A program made the translations under genes and the position numbers. From a virus (taxonomy: Duplodnaviria > Heunggongvirae > Uroviricota > Caudoviricetes), in IMG/VR virus record IMGVR_UViG_2923350032_000001, positions 750 to 64,749 of that record: 64,000 nucleotides of DNA; one strand, written 5' to 3'. Positions 5,354-50,599 of this stretch are shown one piece after another. Every line of letters begins with the position of its first letter. Position 1 is the stretch's first letter. Below the pieces are notes generated by a model that saw nothing but the letters and a program-made list of their open reading frames with translations, searched no databases and was not told the origin of the DNA.

Positions 5354-6397
5354 GTGAAAGCCATTATTACTCCCTTTGTACAAAAAGAGCTTGGCGTCGC
5401 CACATTCAAAGTGGATCAGGAAGTCAGAAAGCTGGTGGAGGCTGGCCGTAAATTTATTATGGAGCCGGTGCCGCGTGAGTTAATCGAGCACATGGACGAC
5501 GGCCTCGTTGTTTCCGAGCAAACTATGGCAACAAATGAGGCGTTGCAGCCGTTTTTTAACAGCGATGAACTGTTTCGCCGTATTGGTGGAATTGACTCGC
5601 TGGTGGCGTGGTTGCGCAGGAAAGAGGGGCAATGCCAGGCCGCAGATCGTAGTTGGTGTGACAACCATATTGTCCACGCTAAACGAGACAATAGCGCGGT
5701 GTTGCTGTGCTGGCATCACGATAACCATTACCGGATGCGTGGTTTTAATGAGCTGAAAGAAACGCTGCATAATAATCGCGTTAACTGGATACTGGATGTC
5801 GCCCGTCAGGAAATGGGCCTTTCAAATAGCCATGATTTAAGTATTCAGGAGCTGTGCTGGTGGGCTTTCATGCGCAACATGATGCACCTGATGCCGGAAG
5901 AAGTCTGCCGCATATCAATAAATAAGATGAAGGCTGCTCCGCAGGATAGCGGACCTTTGAAAGAGGCGGATATTCGCCCGTATGACGATCGTGCTACAGC
6001 ATATGTTCAGATGATGGAAGAACGCGCCGCGCCGATGCGTGCAAAAGTATGCCCTGTGGATGTTGACTCCGACCCTGGCACGGCGCATTTCAAAATACCA
6101 AAACTGCAATCGCTAAAATTACCCGAGTACATGGACTTTGTTGCTTCCCGTCCGTGCTGTGGATGTGGAGCTGCGGGAGCTGGCGCTCGCATTACGCCTT
6201 ATATCGTTCGTCATAGTCGATTATGCGCGCATGACATTTACGCAATTCCTCTGTGCCAGTCATGCCAGCGTGATATTGAGCGTGACCGCGATAATTGGGA
6301 GAAGACGCACGGCAGGCTGGCGATGCATCAACGATTGTTCTTTGATTACGCGCTTGGAGTCGGCGCTATCACAAGTCACTCGTCGAGCGTTAGATAA
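5354..6397 (+). CDS. hypothetical protein, post-doc region, Cys-rich C-terminus
   Basis: 347-aa ORF with GTG start; position equivalent to pdcB in P1 gene order. Confidence 0.5.
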
Positions 6398-6398
6398 A

Positions 6399-6415
6399 AT
6401 TGCTCTAATGTATTG
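6399..6415 (+). promoter_or_regulatory. C1 operator (ATTGCTCTAATgtaTTg) upstream of lpa
   Basis: match to the 17-bp asymmetric P1 C1 operator consensus ATTGCTCTAATAAATTT. Confidence 0.6.
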
Positions 6416-6485
6416 CTATTTCTTTAATCGAGGGTATTATATTCGTCGTTGATTAGTTGACATGGGCTAATCAGTAGGTGACAGG

Positions 6486-6938
6486 ATGTTACTTAACTGG
6501 CAGGGACGCCACTTCATGGAAATAAATCACTCACGAATTACATCGTATGAGATTGCGGATTACATGATTCGCACTAAATCTCTTCTATCAGCGAAAGAAC
6601 TCGCAGCAATCCTTGAAAAGGAATACCCGCATCTGGATGTCGATAAGCGCGATGTTTATCTGCGCTTAAAGGCTATCGCTGTGTCTAAGTATTCGTCTGT
6701 TTTGATTGATGACAGTACACGCCCACGTAGATTTCAGATCCACTCTCTGAATCCTGAATTCTTTCGCCGTAGCCGCGCTCCGCGCCGGTTTGATGAAAAA
6801 CTCCAGAACGAACTCTATATGACGCAGGACGAAAAGGAACGCCGGGAGCACCAGCCTTGGGTAATGGCGCGTCAACTTTTCAATAAGGTGGCCCGTCAGC
6901 ACCGTCATTACGGTAATGCCACATCCGCACGTATCTGA
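6486..6938 (+). CDS. lpa: late promoter activator Lpa-like protein (true start may be the internal Met at about 6516)
   Basis: 150-aa ORF directly upstream of pacA and downstream of a C1 operator, as in P1. Confidence 0.55.
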   Translation: MLLNWQGRHFMEINHSRITSYEIADYMIRTKSLLSAKELAAILEKEYPHLDVDKRDVYLRLKAIAVSKYSSVLIDDSTRPRRFQIHSLNPEFFRRSRAPRRFDEKLQNELYMTQDEKERREHQPWVMARQLFNKVARQHRHYGNATSARI

Positions 6939-7023
6939 TTGATTGCTTGCCCGTTCCGGGCCTTTTGACATGTGACTTTCGTTACCCTCGCGTCAAAAAG
7001 AGTTTTTACGAAAGGAAGCATAA

Positions 7024-8217
7024 GTGACCTGGGACGATCACAAGAAGAATTTTGCTCGCCTGGCGCGAGATGGTGGTTACACCATCGCACAGTATGCCGC
7101 CGAGTTTAATCTTAACCCTAATACCGCACGTCGTTATCTCCGTGCCTTCAAAGAAGACTCCAGGACTGCGGACAGCCGCAAGCCAAATAAGCCAGTCAGG
7201 AAGCCACTAAAAAGCATGATCATTGATCACTCTAATGATCAACATGCAGGTGATCATATTGCGGCTGAAATAGCGGAAAAACAGAGAGTTAATGCCGTTA
7301 TCAGTGCCGCAGTCGAGAATGCGAAGCGCCAAAATAAGCGCATAAATGATCGTTCAGATGATCATGACGTGATCACCCGCGCCCACCGGACCTTACGTGA
7401 TCGCCTGGAACGCGACACCCTGGATGATGATGGTGAACGCTTTGAATTCGAAGCTGGCGATTACCTGATAGATAACGTTGAAGCGCGGAAGGCCGCGCGC
7501 GCTATGTTGCGTCGGTCCGGGGCCGATGTTCTGGAAACCACTCTTCTTGAAAAGTCTCTTTCTCATCTCCTTATGCTGGAGAACGCCAGGGATACGTGTA
7601 TTCGCCTGGTGCAGGAAATGCGCGATCAGCAAAAAGACGATGATGAAGGTACTCCGCCTGAATACCGTATCGCGAGCATGCTAAACAGCTGTTCCGCGCA
7701 GATAAGCAGCCTGATCAACACCATTTACAGCATCCGGAATAACTATCGAAAAGAAAGCCGGGAGGCGGAAAAGCACGCTTTGTCTATGGGGCAAGCTGGC
7801 ATTGTTAAGCTGGCATACGAACGAAAGCGTGAAAATAACTGGTCAGTGCTGGAAGCAGCTGAATTCATCGAGGCGCATGGCGGGAAAGTGCCGCCCCTGA
7901 TGCTGGAGCAAATCAAAGCCGATCTGCGTGCTCCTAAGACCAATACCGATGATGAGGAAAGGCAAACAGCCGTCGGTGGCCCTTCTCTTGAAGATCTGGA
8001 CAAAGTTGCGCGAGAACGGGCCGCCAACCGCCGCGCCGATGCCGCATTGTGGATTGAGCAGCGTAGGGAAGAAATCGCCGATATCGTTGATACAGGCGGT
8101 TATGGAGATGTTGATACTGAAGGTGTATCAAACGACCCATGGCTGGAACAAGACCTGGACGAAGACGAGGAGGAAGACGAAGAAGTTACCCGCAAGCTAT
8201 ACGGGGATGATGATTAA
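7024..8217 (+). CDS. pacA: terminase small subunit / pac-recognition protein PacA
   Basis: 397-aa ORF with GTG start; contains the pac site; acidic C-terminus; recognised as P1 PacA. Confidence 0.92.
7208..7375. other. P1-type pac packaging site: four TGATCA hexamers (7208-7247) and three TGATCR hexamers (7347-7375) flanking the cleavage region
   Basis: hexamers with embedded GATC Dam sites read directly in sequence inside pacA. Confidence 0.9.
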
Positions 8218-9701
8218 TGGCCAGAAGTTGCGTAACGGATCCACGTTGGCGCGAGCTGGTGGCGCTATATCGTTATGACTGGATTGCTGCCGCTGATGTT
8301 TTGTTCGGCAAAACACCTACCTGGCAGCAGGATCTGATTATTGAGTCTGTGCAGGAACAGGGTAGCAAGACATCTGTTTCGTCTGGTCACGGTACCGGGA
8401 AATCAGACATGACTTCTATCATGATCATGTTGTTCATAATCATGTATCCCGGTGCCCGCGCCATTATCGTTGCGAACAAAATTCAGCAGGTAATGACCGG
8501 TATATTCAAGTACATCAAGATAAACTGGGCTACTGCCACCAGCCGTTTCCCATGGCTTGCTGATTATTTTGTTCTGACAGAAACCGCTTTCTATGAGGTT
8601 ACAGGTAAAGGTGTATGGACTGTAGTACCGAAGGGCTTTCGTCTGGGAAGTGAAGAAGCTCTCGCCGGTGAACACGCAGATCATCTTCTGTATATTATCG
8701 ATGAAGCCTCCGGTGTCAGTGATAGAGCTTTCGGTATCATCACCGGTGCTCTTACCGGACAGGATAACCGCATCTTATTACTGTCACAGCCTACACGCCC
8801 AAGCGGCTATTTCTACGATACACACCATAAACTGGCCAAGCGTCCTGGTAACCCTGATGGCGTTTATACGGCGATCACGCTTAACAGTGAGGAATCACCG
8901 TTGGTAACGCCAGCATTTATCAAAATGAAGCTGGCGGAGTACGGCGGGCGTGATAACCCTATGTACATGATTAAGGTACGCGGCCTATTCCCTAAATCAC
9001 AGGATGGCTTCCTTCTTGGACGTGATGAGGTTGAACGTGCAACGCGGCGGAAAGTCAAGATTGCCAAAGGATGGGGCTGGCTTGCATGTGTGGACGTTGC
9101 TGGTGGTACGGGACGGGATAAGTCCGTTATCAATATCATGATGGTGTCCGGCCAGCGAAATAAACGCCGTGTAATCAACTATCGAATGCTGGAATACACA
9201 GACGTTACAGAAACGCAGCTTGCCGCCAAAATTTTCGCAGAATGTAATCCTGAGCGATTCCCAAATATCACCATAGCGATAGACGGCGATGGGCTGGGTA
9301 AAGCAACGGCGGATCTGATGTACGAGTATTATGGTATTACCGTACAGCGTATACGCTGGGGTAAAAAGATGCATAGCCGTGAAGATAAGAGCCTGTACTT
9401 TGATAAACGTGCTTATGCCAACGTTCAAGCCGCAGAGGCCGTAAAATCTGGTCGTATGAGACTGGATAAGGGTAATGAAACTATTGAGGAAGCGTCGAAA
9501 ATCCCTGTAGGGATTAACTCCGCAGGTCAATGGAAGGTGATGAGTAAGGAGGATATGAAGAAAAAACTCAACCTGCACTCACCAGACCATTGGGATACAT
9601 ATTGTTTCGCTATGCTGGCGGATTATGTTCCCCAGGATGAAGTGCTTAGCGTCGAAGACGAAGCGCAGGTTGATGAAGCTCTGGCATGGCTTAATGAATG
9701 A
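8217..9701 (+). CDS. pacB: terminase large subunit PacB
   Basis: 494-aa ORF overlapping pacA stop; recognised as P1 PacB. Confidence 0.92.
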
Positions 9702-42615: not shown

Positions 42616-43513
42616 GCACTGGAAAAACATTACTATTTATAAACTTTCTCGTGAGGCGGATCTGACCGACTTAGAAGATAAAAAGAAAATGATCCTTTTC
42701 ACGCCATGCGGTAGTCAGGATATGGCCAAGTTCGGTTTTGTATCGCCATTTGGTGATAATTCCGAAGTTATCGCTATGCATGGAAATGGTTTTATCCTTG
42801 TTGAAGCAAAGCGCGAAACAAAAATTCTTCCCCCGCCGGTTATCCAGCGAGCTATTCAAGAAAAAATTGAAAAACTTGAGCAAGAACAAGCGCGTAAACT
42901 GAAGAAAACAGAGAAGGACTCCCTGAAAGACGAAGTTCTGCATTCTCTTCTGCCACGGGCTTTTTCAAAGTTTTCTGTTATCCAGGCGATCTACGACGGT
43001 TCAACTAAACGTATCTATATCAATGCCAGCGCGCGGCAGGCAGAGGATATGCTCGCGCTTATGCGTAAATCTCTGGGTTCTCTTCCTGTTGTTCCCCTAA
43101 GTGTTGAAAATCCCATTGAATTAACGCTGACCGACTGGGTACGTGATGGTAGTGCTCCACAGGGATTTCAAATGGGGGATGCGGCAGAACTTAAGGCAGT
43201 GCTTGAGGATGGCGGTATTGCCCGAGTGAAAAAGCAGGACTTGGGAAGTGATGAAATATCCACACACCTGGAAGCTGGCAAGCTCGTCACTAAGTTGGCA
43301 CTCGACTGGCAGAACCGCATTAAATTTACACTGGACCATAACTTCAGCCTTACCAGCGTCAAATTTGCGGATGAATTGCTTGAGCAGAACTCTGATATTG
43401 ATAGTGAAGATGTTGCGCAGCGACTGGACGCAGATTTCTTCCTATTGACCAGTGAAATTTCGTGCCTGGTTGATGCTCTGGTAAATGCCCTTGGTGGAGA
43501 GGCTAAGCAGTGA
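42608..43513 (+). CDS. hrdC: RdgC-like recombination-associated protein
   Basis: RdgC-like sequence ...[13 protein letters not shown]...[21 protein letters not shown]...ALDWQNRI...; start placed at Met 42608. Confidence 0.85.
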
Positions 43514-46500
43514 AAGAGCTGTGCTATGGATCTGTTTGCAGTGGAATTGAAGCCGCGAGTATTGCCTGGGAACCGTTGGGTATGCGTCCGGTTTGGTTTG
43601 CTGAAATCGAGCCTTTTCCATCGGCCGTTCTTGCGCTCCGCTGGCCCCATGTCGCCAACCTTGGCGACATGACAAAACTTGCCAAAAAAGTCTTGGCTGG
43701 GGAAATCGAATCCCCTGACGTGCTCGTCGGGGGAACACCATGTTTTACCGCGGGGCATATGGTTCTTTGTAAAAATGGTTATAAACCAATAGAAGATATT
43801 TGCCCTGGCGATTACGTAGTCAGTCATCTCGGGCGGTTACAACAAGTAAAAAGAGTTGGTTCAAAAATAGCTAATACGGGGTTACTTAATGCCGTTGGGC
43901 AGCCTTTAGGTATAAGAACAACCAATGACCATCCCTTCCTGGCGGTTCGGTGGAAAGCCCAAAACACCCGGAAAAATGGCACATATTTTAAGAGAGAGTT
44001 GTTGTCTGAACCGGAATGGCGAGCAGCATGTGATATGCCGGGATATCAATGGTGCGCTCTAACTAATTTCAATATTGCATCTCCAGATATTTGTTCTCGG
44101 TTCTTGTCTGAAGAACAGGCTATGTATCTTGCGGGCGCTTATGTTGGCGATGGATATATTAGGAGATGGAGAGGTAAATCTAAGAAGGCGGTTGTTTTTG
44201 GCATAAATTGCCAGAAATTGAGAAAGTTTCATTGCCGCATACCAGAAAACATATTTTCCGTGGCAAGCGAAATCCGAGGGAGCATCAAAGTAACCTTGAA
44301 TGATACGTGTTATGCCAATTGGCTTAATGAACATTTTGGCGAGTTAAGCCATGCTAAGCGTATCCCTGCATGGGTGATGTCGCATCCATTGCGTCATGTG
44401 TTTTTACAAGGCTATCTTGATACTGATGGGACACCAAGTGGTAAAGCGGGATTTAGAATTAATAGTGTTAGTCCTGCGCTTGCTTGGGGCGTTGCGGGGT
44501 TGTCACAGACTTGTGGTTATGTTTCTTCGGTCAGCTTTATTGAAGTTGAGCCCAAAAAAGTGATCGAGGATCGCGTGGTAAATCAACGGAATTATTATCA
44601 GGTAACAATCTGCCCGCAGAAATTGTCACGTAAATCAAGATTGGCTCATGGAATGCTTTTACGAACAGTCAAAGAGTTTAAATCGGTAGGCCTAGATACT
44701 GTATACAACATAGAAGTCGAAGGTGATCATTCCTATATCCTCAATGGTGCGGTGGTCCATAACTGTCAGGCATTCAGTATCGCGGGCTTACGTGGTGGGC
44801 TTGATGATGAACGCGGCGCGCTAACTTTGAAGTATGTGGAGCTTGCAAATGCAATTGACGACAAACGGTCTGAGTCCTTCCTCAAACCGACAGTTATCGT
44901 CTGGGAAAATGTCCCAGGAGTCCTGTCATCGGCAGATAACGCCTTCGGATGTTTCCTTGCCGGATTGGCTGGAGAAGATGCGCCATTTGAACCAGGTGAT
45001 CGACCTGAATCAGGAAAAAGTAACGCGTTCTGGCGGTGGGATGGCAAAACCGGTTGCCATGCTCCAAAGTGGCCGCAGTGTGGTTGTATTTATGGACCGC
45101 AGCGAAAGGTGGCCTGGAGAATCCTTGATGCCCAATACTTCGGAGTGGCACAACGACGCCGACGCGTGTTTGTTGTCGCAAGTGCTCGAACAGACCTCGA
45201 TCCCGCAACGGTACTTTTTGAGTTCGAAGGCGAGCGCCGGGATATTGCGCCGAGCAGAGGCGAGGGGAAGGAAACTACCAGATATACTTCAAACATCGCT
45301 ATCAGATCTTGCGATGATACAAACATAATTGCCATGGCACATGGGCAAGGAGGGGCTGAGATAAAAACCGATAATTCGGCACCAACTTTGACATGTAACC
45401 ATGAAGCACCAATTGTATTGCTCGGCGACGATAGAATGCGCCGTCTTACCCCTGTCGAATGTGAAAGGCTGCAAGGTTTTCCTGATTGGCATACGTTGAT
45501 CCCTACGGGAAAGCGTAAAAAAGTTTCTTCAGATGAACTGGCATACCTTCGCAATAACTATCCTGATTTAAACGAAGAAGAGGCCGCGATGCTTGCAGCT
45601 GACGGACCGCGTTACAAAGCGATCGGAAATAGTATGGCAATACCAGTAATGCGCTGGATTGGCGATCGGATTACTAAGGCTGCATGTCGGCAAAAAGAAG
45701 GGAGTGAAACAAAAGAGCGAAAGGTTAAACCAGCGGCAGAATTCGAACGGCCCATATTCAAATGGGCTGGTGGAAAATTTGGTGTTCTGGAACAAATCTT
45801 TCGCTATTTGCCAGAAGGGAAGCGCCTGATTGAACCTTTCGTTGGTGGCGGAGCTGTCTTCATGAATGCCGGATATCAGGAAAATCTGCTAAATGATGTG
45901 AATGCTGACCTGATTAACTTTTACAAGACTCTGCAACGTGAGGCGCATTCACTTATCACTCTGGCACATCGTTTCTTCCTGTACTACAACACCCAGGAGG
46001 GATTCCTGGCAGTACGGAATGCGTTTAACAAACAAGTCTATGATGATTTACATCGCGCAGCGGCGTTTTTGTTCCTGAACCGACATTGTTTTAATGGATT
46101 GACGCGCTACAACCAGGCCGGTGAGTTCAATGTCGGGTATGGGAAGTATAAGTCTACGCATTTTCCATTACAGGAGATGGAAGCCTTCCTCGGTGCGGAA
46201 GGGCGGTCTGAGTTTGTATGCGGTGATTTTGCAGCGGTGATTGAAGCTGCCGGAGAAGGAGATGTCATCTTTTGCGATCCGCCGTATGAACCGCTCCCCA
46301 ATACAGAGGGGTTCACGAACTATTCCGGTCATGACTTTAAGTTTGAAGAGCAAAAACGCCTGGTGTCTCTGTTGACGGATGCTCATCGCCGAGGTGCAAA
46401 GGTTCTCATTACTAACAGTGGCGCGCCAAACATCAGAGAACTTTATCAGGACAGTGGCTTCAGAGTGGAACCTCTTTTTGCCAGACGTTCTGTGTCTTGT

Positions 46501-46551
46501 AAGGGAGACACTCGTGGTGTTGCTCATGACGTTATAGCAATATTGCTCTAA
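43510..46551 (+). CDS. dmt: bifunctional DNA methyltransferase Dmt (N-terminal C5-cytosine MTase interrupted by an intein; C-terminal Dam-like N6-adenine MTase)
   Basis: C5 motifs [28 protein letters not shown]; Dam-like FVGGGAVF and DPPY; GTG start overlapping hrdC stop. Confidence 0.85.
43741..44763 (+). other. intein with LAGLIDADG homing-endonuclease domain, in frame within dmt
   Basis: starts Cys (CFTAGHMVL), block [18 protein letters not shown] and LQGYLDTDG, ends [21 protein letters not shown] followed by Cys; excision restores [12 protein letters not shown]. Confidence 0.8.
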
Positions 46552-46762: not shown

Positions 46763-46915
46763 CAGGGGTTTCGTCATGGTTAGCGACTTTGCGGCGGTTT
46801 AGCGAAAAACGCCGTAAACCCTCGCCTAATGCGGGCGGGTATATAAGGCGAAAAGCCAACAGGGCTTTAAAAAAATCATTACGGTGTTAGCATAAAAAGC
46901 CTGTATCAATGAGCA

Positions 46916-48091
46916 GTGACTATGTTAAGAGCAACAAAAGTACGTATATACCCCACTCCTGAACAGGCAGAGTACCTCAATGCCCAGTTCGGTGCAGTGC
47001 GCTTTGCGTACAACAAAGCTCTTCACATCAAAAAACATGCTTACCAGAGACACGGAGTAAATTTAAGTCCGCGTAACGATCTGAAACCGTTGTTGTCTGT
47101 GGCCAAAAAGTCCCGCAGGTATGCCTGGCTCAAAGAGTTTGATTCAATGGCATTGCAACAGGCGGTAATTAATCTTGATGTGGCATTTTCCAACTTTTTT
47201 AATCCGAAGCGGAAAGCGCGGTTCCCGACGTTTAAACGTAAACACGGAAAACAATCGAGCTATCACTGTGTCGGAGTTAAGGTGCTGGATAATGCCATCA
47301 AAATTCCTAAACTGTCCCCAATAGAAGCACGCCTTCATCGTGAACTTCATGGAAAGCTGAAAAGCATCACTATCACCCGTTCAGCAACGGGGAAATACTA
47401 TGCTTCAATTCTCTGTGATGATGGTCTGGAAGCTCCGGTAAAACCCACGTTGATATCAACAGTTACTGGCCTGGATATGGGGCTTGAGCACTACGCCATC
47501 AGGTCTGACGGAGCAAAAATTGCGAATCCCCGCCATCTCATCAATGCCAGCCGTAATCTGCGACGCAAACAAAAAGCGTTATCCCGCAAGCAAAAGGGAA
47601 GCGCGAATCGTAAAAAGGCCAGAATCCGTCTGGCAGCGTTACACGAACGGGTGGCTAATGCCCGTGCTGATTTTCAACACAAGCTCTCTCGTACAATTGT
47701 TGACGAAAACCAAGCGGTAATTGTCGAGACGCTGAAAACAGCCAACATGATGAAAAACCACAATCTGGCAAGAGTGATAGGTGATGCAGGCTGGCATAGC
47801 TTCATCACAAGGCTGGAGTACAAGGCGGCGGAAAAAGGCGCTCACCTGGTAAAACTCGACCAGTGGTTTGCCAGTTCGAAAACGTGTCATTGTTGTGGTT
47901 ACAAGATGTCGGAAATGCCACTTCATAAACGCATCTGGCGATGCTCTGAATGTGGTATTGAACATGACCGCGACATCAATGCGGCGCTCAACATCCGGCA
48001 AAAAGGAATACTGGAACTGAAGGCGGCGGGACTCGTCGTCTCCGCCCATGGAGGCCAGCGTAAATCCGTCGCACAGACGGTTGTGGCCTGA
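46916..48091 (+). CDS. tnpB: TnpB (OrfB) RuvC-like RNA-guided endonuclease family protein
   Basis: 391-aa ORF with OrfB_IS605 organisation, RuvC-like D/E/D positions and C-terminal zinc finger CHCCG...CSECG. Confidence 0.85.
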   Translation: MTMLRATKVRIYPTPEQAEYLNAQFGAVRFAYNKALHIKKHAYQRHGVNLSPRNDLKPLLSVAKKSRRYAWLKEFDSMALQQAVINLDVAFSNFFNPKRKARFPTFKRKHGKQSSYHCVGVKVLDNAIKIPKLSPIEARLHRELHGKLKSITITRSATGKYYASILCDDGLEAPVKPTLISTVTGLDMGLEHYAIRSDGAKIANPRHLINASRNLRRKQKALSRKQKGSANRKKARIRLAALHERVANARADFQHKLSRTIVDENQAVIVETLKTANMMKNHNLARVIGDAGWHSFITRLEYKAAEKGAHLVKLDQWFASSKTCHCCGYKMSEMPLHKRIWRCSECGIEHDRDINAALNIRQKGILELKAAGLVVSAHGGQRKSVAQTVVA

Positions 48092-48935
48092 GAAGTGGGA
48101 AGCCTCGCCCGACAGGGCGGGGAGCAGTCACAAACTGACCATTAAAGTAAATGCAAACGATGATCTGATGATGGTTGCGGCCTAAGAAGCCTGACACCAC
48201 GGGGTTGTCCCCGTCTGTGTATTAGGGAACGAGGAGGCATAACAGGCAGGGGCGCTGGTTTGATTAACCAGATGAACGAGAAGGGGCCATCTTCTGGTCA
48301 GCGTCCTTACCTGTTACGTCCTTTTTCATTCAGCGTAACAGCCGGTTCTTAACAGCCTTTGGGTAGAGTTCCTCGTATTTACGGGTATATTCCGTCATGC
48401 TGAAGGCGCTAATCACGCTGGAAGCTAGGGGGGATCCCCTGTTACCGAATTGCAGCCAGGGCGCGGGTGTAGTGGTTTATTGATTGTTACGGCGCATTCT
48501 GGGCTGTACTAAATTTCTGCGCCTAATACTACTACACTTGCCGTTTACTGATGTGTGGTATGTTGCATATGGGCAACACACTCAAGCCTGATGCAGCACG
48601 GTCAGGTAGGGGACGCCGACCTAATGTCTCGCCCTGCAAGGGCGGACGAAAGTAGATCACTATTCCGCGCAGCTATTTAGAAAGAACAGGTATTGAATTA
48701 CCTGGAGAACAACTTACTTACGTTTCCGCCACACCTTCGCTAGTTACTTTATGATGAATGATGGTAATATTCTGGTATTGTAACGAGTGCTCAGATATAC
48801 TTACATCTAAATAACAATGATATATGTTCAATTTAACCTTGAATATTTTGTAATGTTACACGACTTTAAAATTTAGAAGAAGAGGATTCGGTTGAATCCG
48901 ATATTAAATCTGAGACAGGAATATAAGGTTACACG

Positions 48936-49871
48936 ATGAAGCTTAAAAAACTACAATCTCTTGATTTTGTGAATGATTTTATGAGTCACCTAGAAACTGA
49001 TTTTGAAAAAGAATTATTCACAGCTTGTTTGCGAAATTATGCATCACATGGCAACCCATTACGTTTTCATAACTTTGCATTTTCAATTCGCGAGCTAATA
49101 AAGCATATTATCGAGAAAAAATCTCCGAATGATAAATTATTACAAGCATCGTGGTATAAGAGAGAACATGAACATTACGAAATATCTAGAAGACAGCGTT
49201 TAAAATACTGTTCTCAAGCTAAAATTTCAGATGCGTACTTGGGGGAAGAGTTCCTGGAGGAGTCGAATGAAAGAATAGATGAGATGCTTAAGCTTTATTT
49301 CTTCTTAAATAAATATACGCATATAACAGAGAAATATATGCATCCATCACCTCAAGAGTTCTTCCTGAAGGCCAAACAAATACTGCAGATCGCTACAGAA
49401 ATACTAAATGGTATACATATTTGTAGAGATGAATTAATTCGTACTCTCGAAGATAAAATTAGAAATGCAGTTATTGACACGGCGGTAAGCTCTATGCCTG
49501 AAAACCTAGTGACTATCGCGAATCATGCGTATGTAGATTACACTGAAGTCGAAGAATTTGGAATCACGTCGATTGATGATGAGTACATCAATATATATGC
49601 TTCCGGTACTGTCTATGTTACTCAAGAATATGGTTCTAGGAATGATGGGGTTAGCCTAGAAGAAAGTTATCCGTTCACGTTGCACATGGCTTCTCACTTA
49701 GACTCTCCTGAAACATTTGAAGTCATATCTGAAGCTTTAGAGGTAGACACTTCATCGTGGTACGATGATGGGGAGCAGGAGGATCAAATGATGGATATGG
49801 AAAGAAATGAAATTCATCGAATATCTGTTGCACCCCCAGACTTTGAGATGGATGACAATGTACCATTCTAA
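48936..49871 (+). CDS. hypothetical protein, AT-rich orphan gene with acidic C-terminus
   Basis: 311-aa ORF with strong codon periodicity in a low-GC island; no recognised motif. Confidence 0.55.
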   Translation: MKLKKLQSLDFVNDFMSHLETDFEKELFTACLRNYASHGNPLRFHNFAFSIRELIKHIIEKKSPNDKLLQASWYKREHEHYEISRRQRLKYCSQAKISDAYLGEEFLEESNERIDEMLKLYFFLNKYTHITEKYMHPSPQEFFLKAKQILQIATEILNGIHICRDELIRTLEDKIRNAVIDTAVSSMPENLVTIANHAYVDYTEVEEFGITSIDDEYINIYASGTVYVTQEYGSRNDGVSLEESYPFTLHMASHLDSPETFEVISEALEVDTSSWYDDGEQEDQMMDMERNEIHRISVAPPDFEMDDNVPF

Positions 49872-50014
49872 CATAAAGAAACATAGGCTAGTAGCGATGA
49901 AGTGCGGTAAAAATGGCTAAAACTAGATAAGTAATGGCAATCTGTGCCAATGAGTAAATAACACAACCTATTAGATCTGCATTTATTTTTCAAAGGGATC
50001 ATAATCGCACAGCC

Positions 50015-50041
50015 ACCGGTTCAAGCCCGGTAGGGGACACC
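50015..50041 (+). other. tRNA 3'-end-like fragment (T-arm ACCGG-TTCAAGC-CCGGT plus 7-nt acceptor-like strand)
   Basis: T-loop-like hairpin read in sequence; no matching 5' acceptor strand upstream. Confidence 0.25.
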
Positions 50042-50167
50042 TTATTTGGTAGTTGTACGGCGTATGGCACATGCGTCGATGAAATCAAAACAGACGATGT
50101 TCTGCGTATTTTTGTAGACCACGCGGCATTTGATGTTAGTGGGTTTGATCACTCCTTAAGTATCCTT

Positions 50168-50599
50168 ATGAACCTTCAGCGCCTGACCGTTCCGTATGAG
50201 GCCAGAACGTTGACTGATGACGGATTGGTTACCATTGATCCGGGGAATATTTCGGTAACTCCATACAGGCGGACGCCGGTGCCAGCAACCGAATTTGCAG
50301 CTGAATTGCGTAAGAGTGACGTTTTTATCGTTACGCATCCCGAAAGCCTTGGATTAACTGTTCTTGAGGCGGCAATGTGCGGGGCGTTGGTATTAACGCC
50401 TCCCGATTGCCTTCCGCCAGATCGCCTGGCTTTGGTGAACCATATGGTTATCAAGTCGCGGATTGATTGGGATGAGGTTATTGCTCGCGTTGATCGCGTG
50501 AAAAATGCTGAAAAGGTCCAGTGTCACACCTGGTCGGCAATTGCGGAAAAGATGCTTGAGACGTTTATCACGCAGAAACCGTCGTGCGGTAACGGATAA
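50168..50599 (+). pseudogene. glycosyltransferase (GT1-like) C-terminal fragment
   Basis: 143-aa ORF with ...PESLGLTVLEAAMCGALVLTP... but no N-terminal domain. Confidence 0.35.

Follow-up and report, generated by a model that had tools for sequence, protein, structure and literature searches.

Why does a P1-like phage-plasmid carry a patch of low-GC DNA with a single intact gene where P1 has its tRNA genes, and where did that gene come from? The locus lies in a 64,000-nucleotide (nt) stretch of viral DNA (IMG/VR record IMGVR_UViG_2923350032_000001, positions 750 to 64,749), hereafter the window, which on sequence grounds is a P1-like phage-plasmid and whose backbone we compared with the P1 reference NC_005856 by blastn and alignment. 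A preliminary description had marked 48400-50160 as a low-GC island that holds an orphan gene of 311 amino acids and resembles an integrated or captured cassette. The drop in GC content is real (0.30-0.41 over about 48650-50150 versus 0.50-0.54 in the flanks), but the proposed start at 48400 falls in P1 backbone. Our analysis indicates that the island is very probably the deletion-trimmed end of a 186/P2-like prophage that was once integrated in the trnI gene of a P1-like phage-plasmid. The overall explanation that we favor, with moderate confidence, joins this prophage-remnant origin to a gene product that would act as a stand-alone defense-type effector, with a tail whose tip resembles that of SSB, the protein that binds single-stranded DNA. 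The features that carry the argument are, in window coordinates:

48681 to 48918, plus strand: 3' end left over from a 186/P2-like tyrosine integrase gene (int), a pseudogene recognized by blastn and by alignment to intact Klebsiella int genes
48936 to 49871, plus strand: intact gene of 311 amino acids, with pP_pnuc_1 at residues 17-152, pP_pnuc_2 at 163-276 and an acidic tail at 278-311
C-terminal peptide of that gene's product: APPDFEMDDNVPF
49872 to 49998, plus strand: spacer of apparent prophage origin between the cargo gene and the att core, within the block that is ~82% identical to Klebsiella prophages
49999 to 50042, plus strand: putative attR scar, the 3' 44 nt of P1 trnI (tRNA-Ile2, anticodon CAU) from anticodon loop to acceptor end
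50043 to 50078, plus strand: 36-bp downstream flank of trnI, corresponding to P1 71009-71044

The origin of the island is written in its right half. By blastn, 48663-50041 is ~82% identical to the right ends of four Klebsiella 186/P2-like prophages, and the aligned stretch comprises the last ~240 bp of int, the open reading frame (ORF) at 48936-49871 and a spacer ending in a tRNA-like core. The Klebsiella prophages have the gene order cI - int - pP_pnuc gene - host DNA, with attR in a tRNA-Ile gene, and the order cI - int - pP_pnuc gene recurs in an Enterobacter prophage. The nearest homologs of the ORF outside P1-like elements, at 90% identity in Klebsiella and 60% in Enterobacter, both reside in such 186/P2-like prophages. 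Measured against intact Klebsiella int genes, the remnant lacks 1 bp, has a nonsense change from CAA to TAA and carries 27 inserted bp, and the corresponding stretch of the sister plasmid NZ_CP037905 is called a frameshifted partial integrase by PGAP. Weak int microhomology already begins at 48663, overlapping the right end of an inverted-repeat element that is described below.

P1 sequence returns at 49999-50078 (P1 70965-71044), which comprises the 3' part of trnI and the 36 bp downstream of it. The att core at 49999, TCATAATCGC, is the trnI anticodon loop, and from there P1 identity overlaps the prophage homology, which ends at 50041. The Klebsiella prophages have a core, CTCATAATCGCTTGGTCGCTGGTTCAAGTCCAGCAGGGGCCACCA, that matches the last 45 nt at the 3' end of the E. 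coli chromosomal tRNA-Ile genes with 100% identity. From the anticodon loop on, the window instead carries the variants of P1 trnI (CGCAC.G.CACCGGTTCAAG.CCGGTAGGGG.CACC), P1-type T-arm bases and then the P1 flank. By its sequence, this junction is the attR signature of a 186-like integration into P1's own trnI. It matches integration of temperate phages into tRNA genes in that the core runs from the anticodon loop to the 3' end of tRNA-Ile2 and in that a displaced 3' tRNA fragment, followed by the native downstream flank, marks attR. The difference is that the target was another phage's tRNA gene, P1 trnI, rather than a chromosomal one. As a trimmed prophage end in a tRNA gene, the island is an ordinary kind of object; what is unusual is its location within a second temperate phage. 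Because attR alone survives, the P1 tRNA-Ile2 gene is destroyed here, and the other two P1 tRNA genes (Asn and Thr) are deleted as well.

What remains of the prophage is limited. A tyrosine integrase stands beside att, as a decayed 3' fragment, and the att core is the 3' part of tRNA-Ile, as in 186/P2-like phages, but attL, cI, replication genes and structural genes are missing, and the sequence upstream consists of P1 backbone, an insertion sequence (IS) and the unrelated inverted-repeat element. With no attL and no other prophage genes, the island is a prophage remnant and not a prophage. The lack of an attL copy in the window counts against this history, as does the lack of an intermediate among 57 plasmid hits, none of which is a P1-like plasmid that still carries its 186-like prophage or int intact. 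The TCATAATCGC core occurs exactly once in the window, from which we infer that attL was deleted along with the remaining prophage. In place of P1 trnA, trnT, plp, upl, tciABC and the 5' half of trnI, the window has 1532 bp of foreign DNA. A separate deletion has taken P1 71045-73138, the stretch with ban and the 5' part of dbn.

The very probable sequence of events, as read from sequence comparison, starts with a temperate 186/P2-like phage, its integrase targeting the 3' part of tRNA-Ile2, entering trnI of a P1-like phage-plasmid. Later deletions stripped nearly the whole prophage, and with it on the left the P1 genes from trnA to tciC and the 5' half of trnI, and on the right ban and the 5' part of dbn. 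The residue is a decaying 3' fragment of int, the cargo gene from the int-att interval and the attR junction, with the inverted-repeat element now at the left junction. One temperate phage, 186-like, thus took a tRNA gene of another, the P1-like phage-plasmid, for its attachment site and left cargo behind, a possible route for defense genes into phage-plasmids, including mcr-1 carriers such as pHYEC7-mcr1.

The island arrangement occurs in ~23 of roughly 609 P1-like plasmids in PLSDB. Contrary to what would be expected of a conserved P1 backbone gene of known function, the finding that the preliminary description named as fatal to its own proposal, the ORF is thus restricted to a small minority of these plasmids. 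It aligns over its full length in 22 of the 23 copies, and the remaining one is broken at an IS3-family insertion.

The gene itself is an intact, solitary member of the pP_pnuc_1/pP_pnuc_2 family and, as its sequence evolution shows, strongly constrained. We confirmed the ORF as first described, on the plus strand with an ATG start and 311 codons for amino acids. The same description saw no motif in it, which proved wrong. Two Pfam models match it in N-to-C order, each over the full length of the domain and well over its gathering score: PF18165 (pP_pnuc_1; 118.9 bits, cut-off 26.3, 1.5e-34, residues 17-152) and PF18166 (pP_pnuc_2; 115.5 bits, cut-off 25, 2.1e-33, residues 163-276). The PADLOC model Aga_Nuclease also matches full length (1.2e-62), and the PHROG family phrog_29508 is a further match. 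The term orphan therefore needs qualifying, since the family is catalogued, although it is uncharacterized. All residues that are invariant in an alignment of 29 sequences (28-90% identity) are present in the ORF: N40, P41, R43, R52, W73, R85, Q87, T128, H129, Y232, G233, D237, P246 and W275. NCBIfam has no model for it, and tblastn against complete phage records gave no match.

An identical protein is found on 275 public contigs. In a set of 1.84 billion representatives, the pP_pnuc family as a whole, mostly proteins of ~277 amino acids, accounts for 759 clusters when grouped at 50% identity. Compared with the Klebsiella ortholog, the ratio of nonsynonymous to synonymous substitution rates (dN/dS) is 0.06 at a dS of 0.8 (0.04 for the core and 0.21 for the tail), and the ORF is therefore functional and constrained while the neighboring int decays. 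An AlphaFold model (mean predicted local distance difference test score, pLDDT, of 86.9) has a helical N-terminal domain, a C-terminal domain with three long antiparallel strands and flanking helices, and a disordered tail. Fold searches with this model matched no solved nuclease or known nuclease fold, and nuclease activity of the product is a database prediction only. We considered a HEPN ribonuclease domain, for which a conserved R-x4-6-H motif in a four-helix bundle is the mark, for the N-terminal helical domain and treat this assignment as unproven, the candidate R-x4-H motifs not being conserved across the family. Literature searches for pP_pnuc, PF18165, PF18166 and 'pPIWI-associating' returned no relevant paper, and the 2013 PIWI-RE paper does not describe the family.

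The acidic C-terminus reported at first inspection is also borne out, with D or E at 12 of the last 35 residues. It ends in PPDFEMDDNVPF (DDNVPF-COOH), a tip like the C-terminal tip of SSB (SSB-Ct): the product ends in ...SVAPPDFEMDDNVPF, compared with ...APSNEPPMDFDDDIPF (PPMDFDDDIPF) in E. coli SSB1. As in bacterial SSB, the motif stands at the extreme C-terminus, after a disordered, low-complexity linker (residues 295-311 have pLDDT <50), and consists of an acidic stretch followed by Pro-Phe-COOH; here, however, it is borne by a predicted effector in which no SSB-like domain was detected. SSB recruits its partner proteins by way of the conserved SSB-Ct motif, DDDIPF (PMC5872125). Across the family, tails vary in length and sequence while the tip is kept. 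Divergent tails end in DESTPF, DDSPPF, DDDMPF, DDDAPF, DEEIPF or LDNDIPF, and those of a Pseudomonas branch in DNEPF or DNELF. An SSB-Ct-like tip is present in 15 of 24 tail groups defined at 50% identity, compared with 0.87 +/- 0.91 in shuffled tails, bearing in mind that the groups are related and hence not fully independent; in the window, this ORF alone among 398 long reading frames has one. That the tip persists while the linker turns over speaks for a short linear motif with a function. The family, then, is already catalogued but uncharacterized, and this member belies the family name and carries a notable mimic of the SSB tip.

How might such a tail work? The tip would plug into the pockets of SSB-interacting proteins, either tethering the effector to the replication and repair machinery or offering a bait to phage factors that grasp the tail of SSB. 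Alternatively, it would fold back as a DNA-mimicking autoinhibitor. Acidic tails autoinhibit the nucleic-acid-binding surface in SSB and in T7 gp2.5. In phage-host conflict, SSB and its partners recur both as targets and as triggers. We put forward an SSB-tail mechanism of one of these kinds, tether or bait or autoinhibitor, only tentatively. The tail nonetheless offers a testable handle on a small (311 amino acids), easily cloned candidate defense gene.

Two plasmid homologs of ~35% identity, from loci of Rts1 (region 6001-8471) and K. pneumoniae Kp52.145 plasmid I (region 5989-7005), carry C-terminal extensions that are longer and different, ending in ...TEF or ...IEF. In Rts1, a 464-amino-acid ORF with no Pfam match lies 24 bp downstream of the homolog and might be a clade-specific partner.

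The surroundings of related genes bear on function. In P2-like prophages, the int-att region is a minor defense hotspot that reportedly holds 3% of P2 defense systems (PMC13586616), and the closest relatives of the ORF (60-90% identity) sit exactly between int and attR. The present locus differs from these cargo loci in having lost the prophage, with the slot persisting as a fragment in another temperate element, a P1-like phage-plasmid. Among 30 genome loci with homologs, phage integrase is the commonest neighbor (7 of 30). Defense neighbors include type I restriction-modification, MADS, PglW, PD-Lambda-2, PD-Lambda-4, PD-T4-6 and GajB, and gene tables place OLD-TOPRIM with UvrD, a reverse transcriptase, PRTase-CE/ORC-CDC6, CBASS and Cas8b close by. 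The neighboring ORFs of homologous loci have no homology to one another, so no conserved partner gene was found for the family. The ORF is not among the named systems of PADLOC 2.0.

The int-att slot of P2-like prophages and the homologs in defense islands make a defense-type role likely enough that we put the chances at about even that the product is a stand-alone, prophage-borne defense-type effector. It would be a single-gene effector directed against phages or mobile elements, carried by prophages for the benefit of the lysogen and fixed in one P1-like sublineage. A bolder version, which we regard as unlikely, is that stand-alone pP_pnuc proteins constitute a previously unrecognized single-gene immunity of the abortive-infection type, in which the SSB-mimicking tail, as a bait that senses phage factors at the host SSB tail or as a tether to the SSB interactome at replication forks, switches on the core. 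Such a system would be spread by prophage ends and defense islands, with tail mimicry in many clades.

Several observations weigh against a defensive effector that is active here. The defense role is guilt by association, since the literature we searched holds no experimental function for any pP_pnuc member. The ~35-residue tail is absent from about half of the sampled family members and is thus not essential to core activity. In prophages the gene follows cI and int, all three on one strand, whereas the island has lost these upstream genes; we also found no convincing sigma-70 promoter upstream of the ORF in its window context. Expression in the P1-like plasmid is therefore unproven. Read-through from the ban operon is possible, because the gene is oriented like P1's C1-controlled ban operon.

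The alternative that survives best, though we consider it improbable, is that the gene serves the mobile element itself, as an anti-defense factor, as a protein that uses the SSB-tail mimic to inhibit host recombination or repair, or as an addiction or maintenance toxin by which the prophage or plasmid is stabilized. Homologs are always found on mobile elements, namely at prophage ends, on plasmids and on 23 IMG/VR viral contigs, often at the contig end. The gene was kept while the remaining prophage was lost, and an SSB-Ct mimic could titrate host enzymes that interact with SSB, such as ExoI or RecQ. Set against this, the P2-like int-att slot and the chromosomal surroundings of distant homologs hold defense systems and not anti-defense genes, and no antitoxin-like partner is conserved.

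Less probable again, and indeed quite unlikely, is that the ORF is the effector half of a prokaryotic Argonaute (pAgo) system of the bAgaN kind, orphaned here and either inactive or served by a host-encoded Argonaute elsewhere. The idea follows from nomenclature, as Pfam names the family 'pPIWI-associating nuclease' and the full-length PADLOC match is to Aga_Nuclease. The gene association from which the name comes, with a PIWI or Argonaute gene, was not observed. The window holds no Argonaute-like ORF near the gene and no partner of Argonaute size, and no Argonaute gene was seen in ~47 homologous loci that we inspected, among them seven plasmid contexts (Rts1, Klebsiella, Vibrio and several rhizobia) and 11 loci with gene tables and precomputed Pfam hits. 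No Piwi domain appeared among the Pfam families listed for 80 large neighboring ORFs from the 30 genome loci, although these neighbor lists cover the top 25 Pfam/PADLOC families, so that a lone Argonaute neighbor could have escaped, a point that tells against a stand-alone gene. The ORF thus departs from its family's label in having no Argonaute or PIWI neighbor, as do all sampled relatives, and its clade further adds the disordered acidic tail with the SSB-Ct-like tip.

A characterized nuclease for comparison is EcbAgaN, the bAgaN effector of a BPAN long-B Argonaute system. It has 390 amino acids, bears a D-EVK motif in its C-terminal PD-(D/E)XK domain, has its gene downstream of that of its pAgo and becomes active in an 8:8 complex (PMC10620215, PMC13535254). 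The ORF product resembles it in having two domains, in being labeled a pAgo-associated nuclease and in its defense contexts. It differs in its predicted helical N-terminal and three-stranded C-terminal domains, has no D-EVK motif, no pAgo and no detectable similarity to EcbAgaN, and matches no solved structure in sequence or fold. BPAN nucleases have a PD-(D/E)XK domain with D-EVK and, in operons of 2-3 genes, come directly 3' of a long-B pAgo; upstream of the ORF is the integrase pseudogene here and an intact int in prophages. The strong purifying selection on solitary copies also argues for autonomous function. Sampled members of this Argonaute-named family thus look like autonomous genes of mobile elements, which corrects how such matches are to be read in defense annotation.

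The remaining alternatives concern the left side of the island and its flanks, where we distinguish the following:

48132 to 48466, plus strand: P1 backbone stretch, corresponding to P1 NC_005856 68923-69292, 82% identical (blastn)
48467 to 48508, no strand assigned: 42-bp junction between P1 backbone and inverted-repeat element, also present in pE148-2
48509 to 48680, plus strand: discrete noncoding element of 172 nt with 14-nt terminal inverted repeats, CTAAATTTCTGCGC ... GCGCAGCTATTTAG, holding the first GGTAGGGGAC
50081 to 50599, plus strand: 3' part of P1 dbn, a glycosyltransferase remnant resuming at P1 73139, with Pfam Glycos_transf_1 on a 143-amino-acid frame

After the dmt gene, P1 backbone runs as far as 46802 (P1 68922). 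The backbone stretch at 48132-48466, into which the earlier start coordinate falls, lies outside the island and just 3' of a tnpB-only IS; P1 homology ends at 48466, 55 bp short of trnA. On the right, the dbn remnant is annotated as a pseudogene by PGAP.

The preliminary description took a pair of GGTAGGGGAC repeats as the boundaries of a self-contained integrated cassette, with the direct repeats as attL/attR-like ends, a model that we find very improbable and that is already largely refuted. There are indeed exactly two copies in the 64-kb window (versus 0.03 expected for that specific word), at 48605-48614 and 50029-50038, so that the second starts at 50029 and not at 50031; if one mismatch is allowed they reach 13 nt, and low-GC DNA lies between them. 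The second copy also lies in tRNA 3'-end sequence as had been proposed, since 49999-50042 aligns with P1 trnI from anticodon loop to acceptor end. It is however the 3' strand of the trnI acceptor stem within the attR scar, derived from P1, which reads GGTAGGGGCC, by a single C to A change. The first copy lies within the separate 172-nt inverted-repeat element, whose relatives in K-12, phage SfII and other E. coli lack the word and read ATACAGTGAA, AGCTGAGAAC, GGCGCAGAA or AATAGAAAA at that position. Nine other direct repeats of 10-18 nt, another perfect 10-mer among them, share the same 2.2 kb, and the integration core, as four independent prophage ends delimit it, starts 30 nt upstream of the second copy, at TCATAATCGC. 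Because the copies belong to different elements, the relatives vary and other repeats are common, the pair has no common origin and marks no boundary; it is a coincidence. What stands of the cassette proposal is foreign DNA at a tRNA site carrying an accessory gene that is not P1 backbone, in the form of a trimmed prophage end rather than a self-contained unit.

The 172-nt element has relatives of 71-79% identity at K-12 CP4-57 yfjH/intA, in phage SfII, at an Rhs locus, in a P2 hotspot and beside acyltransferase genes in prophage tail-fiber regions, all of them sites that are cargo-gene boundaries. Single-copy relatives occur in 505 of 5426 E. coli genomes, and the terminal repeat consensus is CTAAAT(A/T)(G/T)CTGCGC ... 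GCGCAGCTATTTAG. It has a fold z-score of -3.2 and compensatory changes in 8 of 46 consensus pairs (6 sequences), and no Rfam family matched. It could be a small RNA gene, an element like a miniature inverted-repeat transposable element, or a recombination module.

Finally, the notion that the ORF is an accessory nuclease of the adjacent TnpB element, suggested by tnpB (46916-48091) lying 845 bp upstream on the same strand and by TnpB being, like Argonaute, a guided nuclease, can be dismissed as having next to no probability, because the IS is a precise 1329-bp insertion in P1 backbone (P1 68922/68923) with 335 bp of P1 DNA between it and the island, and because pE148-2 has the island without the IS and prophage homologs have no tnpB, a pattern of presence and absence across relatives that refutes a functional link. 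Since pE148-2 has the island without the IS, whereas pHYEC7-mcr1 has both, the island is older than the IS and independent of it.

The IS itself (46803-48131) belongs to the IS200/IS605 family and encodes only a 391-amino-acid TnpB with HTH_OrfB_IS605, OrfB_IS605 and Cas12f1-like TNB domains; its insertion point is just 3' of the dicF-like region and the Pban promoter. Immediately downstream, 48082-48230 (P1 about 68872-68976) gives a sub-threshold match to the Rfam family tmRNA_permuted (32 bits, E 6e-4; 24 bits in P1), and UAAAUGCAAACGAUGAUCUGAUGAUGGUUGCGGCCUAA in this stretch would encode a tag-like peptide, ANDDLMMVAA-stop. ARAGORN called no complete tRNA or transfer-messenger RNA (tmRNA) in the 64-kb window. 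We accordingly rejected a whole tRNA or tmRNA at the island, the tmRNA-like Rfam matches being both sub-threshold and outside it.

The lineage is without ban, the gene of a DnaB-like helicase, and without any of the three tRNA genes of P1, and it retains dbn as a 3' pseudogene only; it is widespread despite these losses, as judged by the 275 contigs with the island protein. The Dmt methyltransferase (43510-46551) has 1013 amino acids here versus 754 in P1. The extra ~1020 bp (about 43744-44763) encode a Hint_2 and LAGLIDADG_3 module, an intein within the C5-methylase part. In the sister plasmid pE148-2 Dmt has 1095 amino acids, and pHYEC7-mcr1 carries a gene of P1 length.

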